NCBI GenBank assembly: GCA_050485185.1
Contig: JBJHAW010000003.1
Coordinates: 27,653 to 91,652, forward strand
DNA length: 64,000 bases
Direction: 5' to 3'
DNA from: Planctomycetaceae bacterium
GTDB lineage: Bacteria; Planctomycetota; Planctomycetia; Planctomycetales; Planctomycetaceae
Below the pieces are notes generated by a model, which was given only the letters and a program-made list of their open reading frames with translations, had not been told where the DNA came from and did not search any database. Positions 53,287 through 59,081 of the stretch are shown here, piece after piece (the stretch's first letter is position 1; each line of letters starts with the position of its first letter). A program made the position numbers and the translations under genes.

Positions 53287-54273
53287 TTAAACCTCGAGCA
53301 GGACGCCTCCCCACGACAGCCCCGCACCAAACCCCAGCAATAACAGTCGGTCTCCCGGTTGTACTCGCCGTTTACGATACAATTCGTCCAAGGCGATCGG
53401 CACACTCCCTGCCATCGTGTTCCCGTACTGATCGATGTTGATCACCACCCGGTCCTCGGGGATCCCCAGTTGACTGGCGGATTCCAGCAGGATGTTGCGA
53501 TTGGCCTGGTGGGGAATCAACCAGTCGATCTCCCGCGGCAAGATACCGGCCTCAGCACACAATTGCCGGACGGTTTCGGGGAAGACACGCGTCGCGAATT
53601 GCCAAATCGCCTTGCCATCCATCTGCATGGTCCCTCCCACCGGGACACTCAGCGGTTCGTCATCCCCCTCGGAATAGACTTGACTGGCGAGCACTCGACC
53701 GGAACCACCTGTTCCCAACACCACAGCCCCTGCCCCGTCGCCAAAGAAAATCGAAGTTAACCGATCCGCGGGATTCACCAGGCGGGTCCCGAGGTCAACT
53801 CCTACCACCAAAGCCGTCTGCACGCCCGTCTGAAAATATCGGACAGCCACATCGAACGCGGTGACGAACCCATTGCAGGCATTCACAACATCAAACGCCA
53901 TCGCCCGCCGGGCACACAGATTCCGTTGCAGCAAACAAGCCGTGGCGGGCATGGTGTAATCGGGAGTGGAGGTTGCCACAATAAACAACTCGACATCTTG
54001 CGGAGTAATTCCACTTCGCTCCAGCGCCGTCAAAGCGGCTTCCGTCGCCAAGTCACTCGCGCGCACCCCCGCCTCGGCTACCCGCCGCCGTTCAATTCCC
54101 GTCTTGCTCACGACCCACTCCGCCGAGGTCTCCAATGCATTTCGCTGAATCAACTCCGCATTAGAAACTCGCCCCACAGGCAAACCGGCCCCAGTCCCCA
54201 GAATGTTCACTCCTGCACACCAGCGCCCCCGTGCCGAATGCACTTTTCCCCGTACCCGCAAATCCCCCATCAT
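53287..54273 (-). CDS. fabH: 3-oxoacyl-ACP synthase III (FabH/KAS III family)
   Basis: Cys-His-Asn triad: DVVNACNGF, PHQAN, YGNT; FFGDGAGA, GFGAGLSWG; role in primary fatty-acid synthesis not established. Confidence 0.88.
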   Translation of the reverse strand: MMGDLRVRGKVHSARGRWCAGVNILGTGAGLPVGRVSNAELIQRNALETSAEWVVSKTGIERRRVAEAGVRASDLATEAALTALERSGITPQDVELFIVATSTPDYTMPATACLLQRNLCARRAMAFDVVNACNGFVTAFDVAVRYFQTGVQTALVVGVDLGTRLVNPADRLTSIFFGDGAGAVVLGTGGSGRVLASQVYSEGDDEPLSVPVGGTMQMDGKAIWQFATRVFPETVRQLCAEAGILPREIDWLIPHQANRNILLESASQLGIPEDRVVINIDQYGNTMAGSVPIALDELYRKRRVQPGDRLLLLGFGAGLSWGGVLLEV

Positions 54274-54597
54274 CTCCCACTCCTACTGAATCTAAAGAGT
54301 GCCAGCATTCAACTCCAGACTCAGCAAACCTACGCCATCCTCGCCTCAACCCCAGTAAATTCTCCCCATTCCCTTGCTCCCACTGTACCAATCCCGGCAA
54401 AAAAACCGCTTGTAGCGATTACGCCAATCAGCGGAGAGCCAGGCAAAGCCTTGTGAAATCAGTACATTCCCCCCAGCATGTTTATTTTTCTTAATGTGTC
54501 TTTACCCCGCCCATTGCCTGGAAATTCATAAAATGCTTGATTAAAGTGCATCAGTCGATTTGCGTGCGCCAGTGGAGGCGCATCTACTTTTGGGGAT

Positions 54598-54614
54598 TTG
54601 GCCAAAAATTTGCG
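54598..54614 (+). promoter_or_regulatory. Sigma-54 (-24/-12)-like promoter
   Basis: TTGG-CCAAAAATTT-GCG: GG at 54600-01 and GC at 54612-13, exactly 10 nt apart. Confidence 0.45.
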
Positions 54615-54632
54615 ACCACAATGGAGATACAC

Positions 54633-55784
54633 ATGAGTTCTCATCGCTTGAAAAGAGGGATTTGCGGATTGGCCTTCATTCTGATCTCAATTTTTGCACC
54701 CGTCCCTTCGCCTAACAGCGGTATGATTTGGGGGCAAGTGGCTCCACCACCTGAGACTTTACCAGAGCCGAATTTACGCGAGGAAATACGAAACTCATTT
54801 ATTCACATACATGGTGGGTTGCAACAACTCAATGAAGCTATTGAAAAGAACAGTAAGATCCTTGAACGAATCGAGAAAAAACTGGGCGAGACGGGTCCCA
54901 AGCCTGGGGCAGGCGCAGCGACTCCAGCAGCAGACGATCAGGAAGGAGATCAGCCGACCATCACGCGAGCTGATAAGGTGCACGTCATTCTGATTTGCGA
55001 CACTCAAGATAGCGATCTTGGAGTGGGTTTCGGAGCAGGGCAATCGATGATGTCAGACTTACTTGCCGATCAAGGGGGTTGCCTCAATGAAGATGGAACC
55101 CAGTTAAATCCGAGTGTGATGATCATCAATGGGGCGTTATGCAGAGCGTCGATTGTAAGGAATCGGATTACCAGTAGTAATCCTGCACTGCAGGTTGGCA
55201 AGAATGATACGGTATTTTGCTATATTGCTTGCCATGGTTACTTCTCTCCAAGCGATGGACAAATATTTGACTTTTTTCATGACAGACAGCAAGATCGTCT
55301 GTTGAGGTCCAGGCTGTTTGGATTGCTGAAAAGCCTGGGAGCCCGACAAACGATACTTATCAGTGATTCCTGCACTGCGTTTGTCCGAGATACGCAGGCA
55401 TCGAGTGCAGCCCGGGCAGCCGTCTTACCCTCAGCTGTGACAAAAACAGACTACCTCTGCATGCTATTGTATTTCGGGCGTGGAGACATCAGCATCAGCG
55501 CTTGCGAAATCCCCAGCGATCGCAACAACCCGGGTCAATTTTCCTGGTATCCCACAGGCCGGGAGGGCATTTTCACCACGGCTTTTGTCCAGCATGCAAA
55601 ATACTTGCCACCCAAGCCTGGCAGAGTTGTTAACTGGAATCATTTTTTCCAGAGTGTGCAGAATACAACAAGGCTAGAAATGGAAGGAATTATACGAACC
55701 ACGGGAGTGAATCTACCCATAGGATACAGGCATATAAATCGTGCAGATGTAAGGCAGATACCGACATGGGTACTCGGGAACTGA
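54633..55784 (+). CDS. Probably exported caspase-fold (clan CD, peptidase C14-like) cysteine protease with N-terminal coiled coil
   Basis: GGAG RBS; signal-like N-terminus; TVFCYIACHG (His codon 55233) and ILISDSC (Cys codon 55371); GQFS...GIFTTAF and terminal QIP motifs. Confidence 0.75.
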   Translation: MSSHRLKRGICGLAFILISIFAPVPSPNSGMIWGQVAPPPETLPEPNLREEIRNSFIHIHGGLQQLNEAIEKNSKILERIEKKLGETGPKPGAGAATPAADDQEGDQPTITRADKVHVILICDTQDSDLGVGFGAGQSMMSDLLADQGGCLNEDGTQLNPSVMIINGALCRASIVRNRITSSNPALQVGKNDTVFCYIACHGYFSPSDGQIFDFFHDRQQDRLLRSRLFGLLKSLGARQTILISDSCTAFVRDTQASSAARAAVLPSAVTKTDYLCMLLYFGRGDISISACEIPSDRNNPGQFSWYPTGREGIFTTAFVQHAKYLPPKPGRVVNWNHFFQSVQNTTRLEMEGIIRTTGVNLPIGYRHINRADVRQIPTWVLGN

Positions 55785-55887
55785 TAGCAGGCAGTTGCTA
55801 GCCAAGCTTGCGTAAACCATTTGGAGAAAATCAGCAGATCGAGTCGGTTGTCGGCCTTTGTTATTTTGTAGTATTCAGGAGCGAATC

Positions 55888-56325
55888 ATGAAAAAACTGC
55901 TTGTACTCACTCTTCTGCTCAGCCTGTTACTGGTGACGGGAAGCGTAGAAGCCAATTACCGCTTTCGCATGCAAATCCGTGGACGGGGTCCCATGTTGCC
56001 ATTCGCACCAGCCCCGATGTTTCTGGTTCAGCCCCCCAGTCAAGTACACCAGCGAGACCAGTCTCATGAGGACTCGTTATCCAGAATTGCCCGCAGGCCT
56101 GTGGATACCTCTCGCTTCCGGGACACCCTGAATCACACGCGTGTCATCCTGACTAAATTGAACATCGAAGAAGACACCTACCCTGAAATGCAGACCATTG
56201 AGCGCCGACTGGCCAATTTACAGGAGGAAACCGGTGGTGATCGAAGGTTTATCCCTCAGGAGGTCATCTCGATCAATCCCGATCAAGGTGACATCCTGAT
56301 TCCGAGCAACTTCAGAACGAGATAG
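55888..56325 (+). CDS. Secreted hypothetical protein (145 aa)
   Basis: AGGAG RBS; MKKLLVLTLLLSLLLVTGSVEA signal peptide; Pro-rich segment; short heptad IERRLANLQEE. Confidence 0.75.
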   Translation: MKKLLVLTLLLSLLLVTGSVEANYRFRMQIRGRGPMLPFAPAPMFLVQPPSQVHQRDQSHEDSLSRIARRPVDTSRFRDTLNHTRVILTKLNIEEDTYPEMQTIERRLANLQEETGGDRRFIPQEVISINPDQGDILIPSNFRTR

Positions 56326-56374
56326 AAAGTTTACGTTTCGTCTCAGGCAATGAGTAATCGACTGTACCGATTAT

Positions 56375-56407
56375 GCGGCTCGGCTTAACAGCCGAGCCGC
56401 TTTTTTT
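56375..56407 (+). terminator. Intrinsic terminator
   Basis: gcggctcggct-taac-agccgagccgc-ttttttt. Confidence 0.85.
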
Positions 56408-56506
56408 GGGTCTGATGCCTATTGAGGTAACAATGTGTGCACGTGAAGCCGATTCCAGTACAGAGACTTGGAGCATGTTAAATCATCTCGCCGAAGGGGC
56501 TGAGTT

Positions 56507-57043
56507 ATGGGACGCGTGGCAATCTGGGGGCTTTGTCTGGGGACTGTGCTGATCCTTTCAGAACCGCAAGCGGCTGCACAGCAAAGATTCTGTTTTGACA
56601 TGCCCTCTTGTCAAACCTCCCAATCCTGCAATCGGGGTGGAGATCAGGGATGTGGTCGCTGCTGTAAGATCATCATGCGACGCAACGTTTTTGGCTCGAC
56701 TTGCTTTGGACCACCGGCTCCCGCTGCAGGCGTGGTCGTTTCCAGCGTCCCGGCTTTGACGGTAGCCACTCCTGCCCTTCCGCTCTCTTTTGGAGCGGTC
56801 TCTGCGGGGGGGATGTCTGAAAGTGACGTTGCCCGGGTTGCTGCCGCCGCCGCCCGAGATGTGCTGGCTGCGTCAGGAGGGGATCGTGCGGGGGCAGCCT
56901 CTGCCGGGGCAGTCAGCAATCGCTGCGATGATCCTTGCGCCGACATTAAGCAACTGCAACACGATGTGGAACATCTCAGGCAAATCACAAGGAATCTAGC
57001 TGTCGCAGTAGATGCTTTAGTGGACCGGCTGAATAACGAATGA
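56507..57043 (+). CDS. Secreted hypothetical protein: Cys-rich head, Ala-rich linker, CDDPC + C-terminal coiled coil
   Basis: Signal peptide ending AAA; IKQLQHDVEHLRQITRNL heptads. Confidence 0.75.
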   Translation: MGRVAIWGLCLGTVLILSEPQAAAQQRFCFDMPSCQTSQSCNRGGDQGCGRCCKIIMRRNVFGSTCFGPPAPAAGVVVSSVPALTVATPALPLSFGAVSAGGMSESDVARVAAAAARDVLAASGGDRAGAASAGAVSNRCDDPCADIKQLQHDVEHLRQITRNLAVAVDALVDRLNNE

Positions 57044-57168
57044 GCAGGAGCTGAAAATTCGCTCGCCGAGTTTCCAAGGTCGCATTCTGGCACACAGATT
57101 CCAATTGATAGAAATCACTATATATCCCCTCTGGGAAACAAGAAGCATTCCACCAGGGAAGGTTGGTT

Positions 57169-58170
57169 ATGTGTGGGTTGAAGCCTGAATACTGTTTTGC
57201 AGCCATTGTTTGCAGTGCTTGTTTTCTGGGAGAGATGAGCCACGCGCAAACTCGCCAGTCGAACATGCGACACTGCGTACAACAGCCCTGTGTGCCGGAG
57301 GTTTATCCGGCTCCTGGGGAACCAGTCACGGCAGCACCGGGGCGGCCTCAAGAGGAGCCTCAGGCTGATCAGCCAATGTATGCGGCACCGGCTCCGCCTG
57401 CGATGTATGTGGCTCCTTCCCCGAGTGGCGAGCGGGTCGGGGAAACGCGGTCGTTTGGTCTGCCGGAAATCACATTCACGCTCCCCTCGCTGTCCTTCAG
57501 CACTCCTGGAATCCGCATTCAGGGATTCCGTCGTGGCGTGCGTGATTCTCACATGCGGCTTGATTCCGCCTACGCTCCCCAGACGGCCGGCCAACCTGCA
57601 GTCTATGGCCAGTTGATGGGGGCGACCGTTGGGCAAGTCCATGCGGCTGCGCCGATGAGCGCATCTGCTGGTGGCCCGCGCGATCCCGATTCAGCAGGTG
57701 CAGCCACTCGGCAAGATCGAGATGAGGAACCAGCATCCCCCGCCACTGCGCCTCCACGTGCTCCGGGATACTATCGGGATCCTTGCTCGCACGTGGAGGG
57801 GGCAGCTTCAGAACTTTATTCAGCACAGCAAGAACTGCAGCAACTCAGGCTACAACTGGAATTGCTGCAGCGACAAATTGAAAGTCGTCAGCAGGAGTTG
57901 AACTCCCAGGCCAACCAGTCAAGTCAGCCACCAGCACCTCAACACATTCAGCAGGCCGCCGCGCACTCTTTTCACACAGGCCCTCAGCAACCAGCGCCCC
58001 ACCCCATGATGCTGCAGGAACAGGCTCGACAATTGCCACCTGAAACTCAACGCATTCTGGAAGCACAAAAACAGCGCGAAGCTGCAGAAGCCGCCTTTGA
58101 GTCATACGAACAGAAAAACCCCGCGCCCAAAGGTTGGAAACGCATGCTGCCAACGGGTTTGTTTCCCTGA
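57169..58170 (+). CDS. Secreted hypothetical protein: Pro-rich, beta-rich segment, DPC + Gln-rich coiled coil
   Basis: GGAAGG RBS; signal-like N-terminus ending SHA; LPEITFTLPSLSFSTPGIRIQG; QQELQQLRLQLELLQRQIE. Confidence 0.75.
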   Translation: MCGLKPEYCFAAIVCSACFLGEMSHAQTRQSNMRHCVQQPCVPEVYPAPGEPVTAAPGRPQEEPQADQPMYAAPAPPAMYVAPSPSGERVGETRSFGLPEITFTLPSLSFSTPGIRIQGFRRGVRDSHMRLDSAYAPQTAGQPAVYGQLMGATVGQVHAAAPMSASAGGPRDPDSAGAATRQDRDEEPASPATAPPRAPGYYRDPCSHVEGAASELYSAQQELQQLRLQLELLQRQIESRQQELNSQANQSSQPPAPQHIQQAAAHSFHTGPQQPAPHPMMLQEQARQLPPETQRILEAQKQREAAEAAFESYEQKNPAPKGWKRMLPTGLFP

Positions 58171-58241
58171 TATTCTCATGCCGATTCATTGTCTCGATGG
58201 TGTCGAACAAAACCTGAACCTGGCCAGCGACGGTTTCTATC

Positions 58242-59081
58242 CTAGCGACGCGGAGTTTGTGTTCGGATCTCGGTTGGAAAAATCACGGATCTTCCCTGAT
58301 CGGCAGAGACGCGCAAGTGGTCCAGGGGAATCCAGCACATGAGGTCTTCGCGAAATGTGCCGCCAATGAAGGGCATGCAGTGTGCCTCTCCTCCCCGGAT
58401 CTCCATGCACTTGACGATTTGCCGACCTGGAATCGTGACCGGGATACCGGAATCCTTAGCTATTTGGATGTCTTGAGTCAGTTCATAGACTTCCCCCGCC
58501 TTGTATTGGGGCCCCTCTGGTTGTGTTAGGCGGACTGAGGGGGTCTGCTCCAGACCTGGGCGCCTGAAGGTCGCTCCTGGGATTGGTCTGGGCGTCTCCC
58601 CGGTGGCATGGTGCTGGGGGCTTACTCGTGTTGGCAAATGATCACCTCTCCGGGGAGGAGACCACTCAGAAAGTTCGTGATCGTAGTCTCGTCCTGAGGG
58701 CCTGGCTGTCGAGGGAATCAGGGTGTTGTAAACCGCCTCAAAGTTCTCAATTCTTACCACGTCCTGCTTGGCAACCCAGCCGATTCGAGGTTGCGTCCCA
58801 GGTACGATAGCAACGATGTAATCTTGATTGCTTCCTTCTTCAAATACGACAGTCCCCGCCGGTAACTCCGGGGACGTCTCTCCCTCTGGGAGTTGGATAC
58901 GCTTTCGTGTTTTAAAATCATGCTCCCAGAACTTGGTGTTCTGCGTGGTGACCCACAATCTGTCGGGACCAAATATCATCCCCTCTTGGGCCATTGCAAG
59001 CGGGCTCGTAATGAAGCCAACCATCAAAGTCGTAACGAGCAATATCCCGCTGAGCCCTGATTTGTTACAGATCATGATCAT
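58242..59081 (-). CDS. Secreted hypothetical protein with two putative SH3-like domains
   Basis: Signal peptide ending AMA; LPAGTVVF...RIGWVAKQDV and PGRQIV...MCWIPLDHL resemble SH3b C-termini. Confidence 0.55.
   Translation of the reverse strand: MIMICNKSGLSGILLVTTLMVGFITSPLAMAQEGMIFGPDRLWVTTQNTKFWEHDFKTRKRIQLPEGETSPELPAGTVVFEEGSNQDYIVAIVPGTQPRIGWVAKQDVVRIENFEAVYNTLIPSTARPSGRDYDHELSEWSPPRRGDHLPTRVSPQHHATGETPRPIPGATFRRPGLEQTPSVRLTQPEGPQYKAGEVYELTQDIQIAKDSGIPVTIPGRQIVKCMEIRGGEAHCMPFIGGTFREDLMCWIPLDHLRVSADQGRSVIFPTEIRTQTPRR

Follow-up and report, generated by a model that had tools for sequence, protein, structure and literature searches.

The current study concerns four adjacent, co-oriented genes on the forward strand of a 64,000-nucleotide stretch of a Planctomycetaceae genome (contig JBJHAW010000003.1; the whole stretch is termed the window). 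The genes, designated g1 (54633..55784), g2 (55888..56325), g3 (56507..57043) and g4 (57169..58170), encode a caspase-fold cysteine protease of 383 amino acids (aa) and three orphan proteins of 145, 178 and 333 aa, respectively, and the signal-peptide-like N-termini of all four products suggest that they are exported. We hold with moderate confidence that this cluster represents a module which recurs in Planctomycetaceae as two units, that a cysteine capping a helix is a real element shared by g3 and g4, and that the AGAA[S/T] peptides present in g1, g3 and g4 are linker sequence. What the analysis establishes is the fold and catalytic dyad of the protease, the recurrence of the module, the conservation pattern of each motif and the purifying selection acting on all four genes. 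A previous sequence-only reading of the window had taken AGAA[S/T] and GGDR as common recognition or cleavage sites, and Asp-Pro-Cys (DPC) before a coiled coil as part of a disulfide-locked assembly.

Recurrence of the module in Planctomycetaceae

Relatives of the four genes were drawn from genome and metagenome collections, from whole-genome searches and from a profile search of 1.84 billion representative proteins, among which the g3 family forms 63 clusters (E ≤ 1e-3). Motifs were tallied over non-redundant loci, and one g3 match (locus L035, genome G405) was judged spurious and left out. The arrangement serpin-g1-g2-g3-g4, with all genes co-oriented, is found in L025, L033 and L090, and the same genes occur in other arrangements in L017, L027 and L088. 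Serpin-g1-g2, or g1 with a serpin, stands alone in L016, L018, L019 and L040, while g4-g3 is divergent from g1 in L020. Homologs of g2 lie directly downstream of g1 in L016, L017, L018, L025, L027, L033 and L090. A serpin gene adjoins the g1 homolog in approximately ten loci (L016, L017, L018, L019, L025, L027, L033, L040, L088 and L090). The window agrees with the module in having a g2-like gene right after the protease and g3-g4 nearby, in the same order as L025, L033 and L090, and departs from it in that no serpin adjoins the protease.

The g3-g4 pair is adjacent and co-oriented in at least 15 loci, and in most loci checked g4 is directly preceded by a g3 homolog or by a small open reading frame (ORF) ending in an amphipathic helix. 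Members of the g4 family were found in 42 of the 398 Planctomycetaceae genomes, spread over 18 of 92 genera, the distant genomes matching its N-domain. A g1-family gene is present in 16 of 41 g4-bearing genomes, and shares the locus with g4 in at least nine of those; the g3-g4 pair is more widespread than the protease. Taken together, (serpin)-g1-g2 and g3-g4 are probably two transcription units, of which the first would comprise the exported caspase-fold protease and the small exported g2 protein, with a serpin next door in most other lineages, and the second the adjacent orphan exported pair. Between g2 and g3 the window contains a terminator-like hairpin (56375..56410, forward strand; an 11-bp stem with 9 GC, followed by T7), and its conservation in the ortholog described below fits the two-unit picture obtained from comparison.

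Some same-genus genomes that lack g1 still have a g4-like gene, matching in the N-domain only (L096 in genome G008, L095, L097 and L106). In L096 and L106, where the upstream DNA is readable, a small helix-ended ORF precedes this gene, with ADCDED ahead of the helix in L096.

The cluster is missing from 13 same-genus genomes, and the position next to rdgB in four same-genus genomes showed no synteny. One syntenic ortholog (L010), found in metagenome assemblies, has the fabH and rdgB flanks in common with the window and also retains the hairpin and T7 between g2 and g3. Identity to L010 amounts to 61% for g1, 85% for g2, 94% for g3 and 87% for g4. The corresponding ratios of non-synonymous to synonymous substitution rates (dN/dS) are 0.40, 0.16, 0.056 and 0.155, at dS values of 0.44-0.69, from which it follows that all four are real genes under purifying selection. 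The constraint is stronger on g2, g3 and g4 than on g1, which evolves much faster. The g3 gene was also observed to be more conserved than the adjoining housekeeping gene fabH.

The cysteine-capped helix of g3 and g4

The pairing of a cysteine with a coiled coil, as noticed in the sequence-only reading, has been borne out at the level of the families: CxDPC is a signature of the g3 family, and a lone Cys before the coil recurs in the g4 family. On alignment evidence, Cys before a coiled coil is a genuine conserved family feature, in the form Cx(D)PC in g3 and of a single Cys in g4, and of all the motifs considered Cys-before-helix is the only one shown by conservation to be non-random.

In the g3 product a Cys-rich N-terminal part is succeeded by a hydrophobic/Pro segment and a helix, and beyond an Ala-rich linker CDDPC leads into the C-terminal amphipathic helix. 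Across 51 family representatives the signature C-x-D-P-C-G-D-I-x-Q-L-x-x-D-V stands directly before the C-terminal amphipathic helix, its positions being occupied by C in 42, D in 41, P in 34, C in 48, G in 33, D in 35 and I in 44, then [KLR], and Q in 42. Signature and helix together form the most conserved block of the family, both in the g3 alignment and in the 51 representatives, and DPC itself is present in g3 at 11 of 14 loci. The window's g3 carries the signature as CDDPCADIKQLQHDV, in which C-D-D-P-C (a Cx3C motif; 56924..56938, with DPC at 56930-38) caps the conserved C-terminal helix ADIKQLQHDVEHLRQITRNLAVAVDALVDRL (56939..57034). The assignment of this block as a helix is suggested by its heptad-like spacing and by the way it aligns with the helix of g4. 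At the N-terminus, g3 proteins are Cys-rich family-wide, yet this part cannot be aligned; in the homologs at L025:8251-8862 and L033:4187-4828, tandem CVAPS repeats (SCVAPSCVAPSCVAP) lie right behind the signal peptide.

In the g4 product a conserved N-domain (57385..57579) is joined by a disordered, Ala/Pro-rich linker to a single Cys, which is followed by two helices, the first of them long. The N-domain contains invariant columns (A75...P139) and is modelled as a small beta-meander. The AlphaFold 2 (AF2) model of g4 has a mean predicted local distance difference test score (pLDDT) of 49 and reaches confident values in strands 98-119 and in the helices at 207-253 and 282-318 only (model residues of g4 are given in 335-aa numbering, and those of g1 in 387-aa numbering). 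D-P-C (57778..57786) opens the long helix (57781..57921; residues 207-253, pLDDT 72-92), and its Cys is located in the first turn of this confident 47-residue helix, in keeping with the placement read from sequence. DPC occurs in only 1 of 26 g4 homologs. The two positions ahead of the Cys are variable (DP, DR, EG, SG, PP, AG and others); what recurs is a single Cys where the Ala/Pro-rich linker ends, adjoining the first coil-like segment. Such a Cys lies no more than 20 residues from that segment in 16 of 24 g4 homologs, against 22% expected from Cys content.

Past the signal-like N-termini g3 contains nine Cys and g4 three, both odd numbers, and g2 contains none. Conservation, adjacency and these odd Cys counts make an interchain disulfide a reasonable inference, and a disulfide-locked coiled coil is consistent with the conservation pattern.

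Alternatively, the Cys residues at the start of the two helices (Cx3C in g3, one Cys in g4) might form a site that binds a metal such as Cu or Zn, or one that is redox-active, and the adjoining conserved Asp and Gly-Asp of C-x-x-x-C, and the Cys-rich, apparently exported nature of the proteins, would suit such a role. The C-x-x-x-C pair is, however, missing before the helix in 10 of the 51 g3 representatives, the signature offers no His or Met partner, and g4 has a lone Cys with unconserved neighbours, so that we regard such a site as unlikely.

Identity of the g1 protease

The g1 product begins with a signal or anchor segment and a coiled-coil helix, which a disordered linker separates from the catalytic domain. 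Its start was set at the ATG at 54633, in agreement with the L010 ortholog and with the called protein P0001, the version in the ORF list beginning at a TTG at 54537. The long N-terminal helix (54774..54890; residues 52-90) was modelled by AF2 at a pLDDT of ~76-82, and the catalytic domain, mostly at 85-94, displays the caspase-hemoglobinase alpha/beta fold. Foldseek comparison of this model with the PDB returned caspase-7, -6 and -3, MALT1 and AtMC9 at a probability of 1.0 and a template-modelling score (TMt) of ~0.6. Y201, H205, G206, D249 and C251 are invariant in 17 g1 homologs, thereby preserving the His-Gly/D-x-Cys dyad in its conserved order; the catalytic His-Gly (within YIACHG) maps to 55233..55238, and D-S-C with the catalytic Cys (within ILISDSC) to 55365..55373.

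Family models register this relationship less readily. The window's g1 scores 12.7 bits against Pfam Peptidase_C14 (PF00656), below the cut-off of 21.4, while 9 of the 17 homologs match PF00656 at E < 0.01 (best 1.3e-9); in NCBIfam, g1 had no match above cut-off. Judged from the model, g1 is a divergent, presumably exported member of C14/clan CD with the fold and the dyad in place and a predicted activity. No conserved charged S1 candidate was identified in g1. Two of the 17 aligned homologs bear C-terminal PDZ domains, and tandem g1-family paralogs are found in some genomes (L036, G019:C235, 2343-6806; L021; L022).

AGAA[S/T] and GGDR in the context of disordered linkers

The peptides on which the sequence-only reading was built are present in the window: AGAAT in g1 (54909..54923), AGAAS in the Ala-rich linker of g3 (56888..56902), AGAAT in the disordered linker of g4 (57694..57708; pLDDT ~33), GGDR in g2 and g3, and GGPR in g4. 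The DPC tripeptides of g3 and g4 likewise use the same codons, GATCCTTGC, at 56930-38 and 57778-86. The placement of the g1 peptide was also correct, since in the AlphaFold model it falls in the linker (low-confidence residues 92-112) that joins helix 52-90 to the catalytic domain at its first strand.

Their conservation does not support a role as common recognition or cleavage sites. AGAA[S/T] was found in g1 at 3 of 24 loci, the third of which (L019) has it elsewhere in the protein; in g3 at 2 of 14 loci, and in 1 of the 51 family representatives, that of the window's own cluster; and in g4 in 2 of 26 homologs, namely those of the window and L010. GGDR was found in g2 at 1 of 8 loci. When orthologs were aligned against the linker background, AGAA[S/T] was thus kept in L010 only and was missing at equivalent positions beyond this one close ortholog, an outcome that had been named beforehand as refuting the proposal. 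L010 retains all three copies, those of g3 and g4 in proteins too similar to be informative (94% and 87%), and in the same ortholog GGDR of g2 reads DGER, GGPR of g4 reads GAPR and DPC of g4 reads DRC. The 35 residues upstream of the g3 Cys motif average 30% Ala, 10% Ser and 7% Thr in the 51 representatives. As the pentapeptide is lost and an Ala/Ser/Thr-rich linker is kept in relatives, the conserved property would be that of a small-residue disordered linker, and the AGAA[S/T] peptides look like this lineage's local spelling of such linkers rather than a conserved recognition sequence. The L019 homolog (1187-2422) has its AGAAS behind the catalytic Cys, in a loop presumed to link the subunits, and not in the N-terminal linker.

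A chance background was taken from a crude proteome of the window's genome (4562 ORFs, 1.71 million residues). In this genome the cluster is the only run of four adjacent genes with AGAA[S/T] in three, and the eight occurrences outside it have no common theme. Because the motif had been picked after reading, the same count was made for arbitrary 4-mers followed by a residue class in position five; three or more of four adjacent proteins had such a pattern in common in 21 of 4016 four-gene windows (0.5%). Allowing for free motif choice, ~0.3 such instances are expected per 64 kb, and the rarity statistic alone is therefore not decisive for AGAA[S/T]. GGDR occurs in 34 proteins of the genome and a 4-mer common to two proteins is unremarkable; GGDR, like GGPR, is a chance match. 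The probability that two independent DPC tripeptides use the same codons is P = 0.08 under the codon usage of the genome, and the codons differ in the ortholog. A repeat at the DNA level was considered as a source of the AGAA matches and ruled out, given that the three 15-mers differ at synonymous positions.

The reactive centre loops (RCLs) of linked serpins were examined as well. The canonical P1 residue, counted from the hinge, is Ser in six and Ala in one of seven linked serpins. Comparison of P7-P3' of these serpins with the g1-g4 proteins encoded at the respective locus gave no score above those of shuffled RCLs (lowest p = 0.19), and the RCLs thus point neither to an AGAA-like site nor to any other; they resemble their neighbours in composition only. 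Self-activation or substrate maturation through AGAA[S/T] is unsupported. Ser or Ala at P1, together with the Ala/Ser-rich loop of g1 homologs, nevertheless makes a small-residue specificity possible. No serpin stands beside g1 in the window cluster or in L010. The only serpin of the window's genome (G000) is a 545-aa ORF on another contig (C47:19390-21027; L041), unlinked to g1, and its RCL reads GTEAAAATGIVVGVTSAPVD.

Weighing of the alternatives

Several observations weigh against the explanation that we prefer. Three of the 11 genome-wide AGAA[S/T] occurrences among the 4562 crude ORFs fall in the cluster, and AGAAT of g1 is conserved, together with one further island, in an N-terminal region of the L010 protein that is otherwise ~30% identical, so that a lineage-specific functional site may exist at this position. 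No g1-family gene is found in 25 of the 41 g4-family genomes, which means that the two units need not work together. The enrichment of Cys near the coil of g4 homologs (binomial P = 3e-6) ignores shared ancestry. The only hhalign match between the g3 and g4 profiles, with DPC and helix in register, is weak (37% probability), and coiled coils match each other easily. The disulfide, the g3/g4 oligomer and export are predictions from sequence.

The first two of these observations also speak for the proposal of the sequence-only reading, in the form that AGAA[S/T] is a lineage-specific g1 site, used for removal of the g1 prodomain and for maturation of g3 and g4, which co-evolved in the lineage of the window and L010, where the serpin has been lost. 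All three copies are in linkers predicted to be disordered and accessible, and both the P1 residues of the linked serpins and the Ala/Ser-rich loop after the catalytic Cys of g1, with its AGAAS in L019, would fit a small-residue preference. Nevertheless, the motif is missing at equivalent sites in every other lineage, its retention in g3 and g4 of L010 is uninformative at the identities given above, the similarity of RCLs to neighbouring proteins is no better than that of shuffles, and sharing of this kind arises by chance in the 0.5% of four-gene windows already mentioned. Furthermore, the clan CD peptidases characterised so far mostly use other P1 residues, namely Asp, Arg/Lys, Asn or Leu. 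On this evidence a site of this description, and its co-evolution in that lineage, appear improbable.

A broader possibility is that the Ala/Ser/Gly-rich linkers as such, spelled AGAA[S/T] in this lineage, are true cleavage sites of a caspase-fold protease with small-residue (Ala/Ser) P1 specificity, restrained in most lineages by a dedicated serpin whose P1 is Ser or Ala, and maturing a disulfide-locked g3/g4 coiled-coil assembly of the planctomycete envelope. We likewise consider this doubtful; if true, small-residue linker cleavage would amount to an extracytoplasmic protease-serpin-substrate cascade in bacteria.

That every match, DPC included, is a chance similarity of low-complexity proteins devoid of shared function would accord with the frequency of tripeptides and 4-mers common to two proteins, the P value of the identical DPC codons and the lack of conservation of GGDR and GGPR, but it is very unlikely, as DPC of g3 lies inside the best conserved block of a family with more than 50 members, the g4 family has an excess of Cys ahead of the coil, and g3 and g4 are neighbours across loci, the g3 signature and the g4 enrichment already contradicting it for the Cys/helix element.

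Features surrounding the four genes

Scans of g1 to g5 against Pfam, NCBIfam and PADLOC returned nothing above cut-off, and g2, g3 and g4 had no match among PDB sequences. Members of the g4 alignment had no match in Pfam, and against PDB sequence profiles g3 had no match and g4 gave weak coiled-coil noise only. The additional gene, g5 (58242-59081, reverse strand), is convergent with g4 and encodes a 279-aa orphan with a signal-peptide-like N-terminus. Its homolog was found only in L010 (63% identity), where the last ~35 residues are near-identical (HLRVSADQGRSVIFPTEIRTQTPRR); at other loci g5 lies outside the module.

The ~80 nucleotides ahead of the g3 start are ~90% identical to L010, synonymous sites of the flanking genes differing by 33-51% (56375-56506). 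Such identity suggests that g3 has a conserved leader or promoter, to which no Rfam entry corresponds; an Rfam scan of 54200-58400 returned nothing relevant.

A possible mode of action and its significance

In the two-unit module that we favour, all four products would first be exported, as their N-termini suggest. The g3 and g4 products appear to follow one plan, with a conserved N-terminal part, an Ala/Pro/Ser-rich disordered linker, a Cys and an amphipathic or coiled-coil helix, and would most likely assemble through their C-terminal helices, the capping Cys fixing the register through disulfides after export. The g1 product would act as a caspase-fold protease, with serpin control in most lineages suggested by gene linkage. 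More speculatively, g2 to g4 might be substrates of g1 or a scaffold for it, possibly held together by the helices present in all four proteins.

The claim made at the level of the motifs is mostly ordinary, reflecting as it does the composition of flexible linkers. What merits attention is that two orphan exported families, g3 and g4, are paired in ~10% of sampled Planctomycetaceae genomes with a Cys-capped helix in common, and that the pair recurs alongside a divergent exported caspase-fold protease which is itself usually paired with a serpin. Should the parts cooperate, the module would offer a tractable bacterial case of serpin-controlled cysteine-protease processing outside the cytoplasm.

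Comparison with known systems

Metacaspases and orthocaspases (MEROPS C14) share with g1 the caspase-hemoglobinase fold, the His-Gly and D-x-Cys dyad and, following the catalytic Cys, a disordered loop. Unlike these, g1 possesses a signal-peptide-like N-terminus and an N-terminal coiled coil, and remains below threshold in Pfam and NCBIfam.

Disulfide-stabilised coiled coils, such as those of COMP and laminin, and helical proteins with twin Cx3C motifs, such as the small Tim proteins, resemble g3 and g4 in principle, with Cys placed where an amphipathic helix ends and with folding, presumed for g3 and g4, in an oxidising compartment. In contrast to the twin Cx3C (or Cx9C)/CHCH definition, g3 has one Cx3C before a single helix and g4 one Cys, and both are bacterial orphans with no PDB sequence match.

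Bacterial gasdermin operons encode a caspase-like protease next to small proteins, and the window similarly places a caspase-like protease beside small possible substrates. The resemblance ends there, since the cluster contains no gasdermin and has no PADLOC match, and all of its products look exported rather than cytoplasmic.

Finally, cross-class inhibition by serpins is exemplified by CrmA with caspase-1/8 and by AtSerpin1 with metacaspase 9. The serpin gene directly beside the g1 homolog in related loci recalls such pairs, whereas the window and L010 differ in having none beside g1, and the canonical P1 of the linked serpins is Ser or Ala, not Asp or Arg. A full-text literature search found no planctomycete serpin/caspase module, papers on bacterial serpins with metacaspases or orthocaspases being judged by title. 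We regard the module as a new variant of the arrangement in which a protease is encoded together with an inhibitor and partner proteins.

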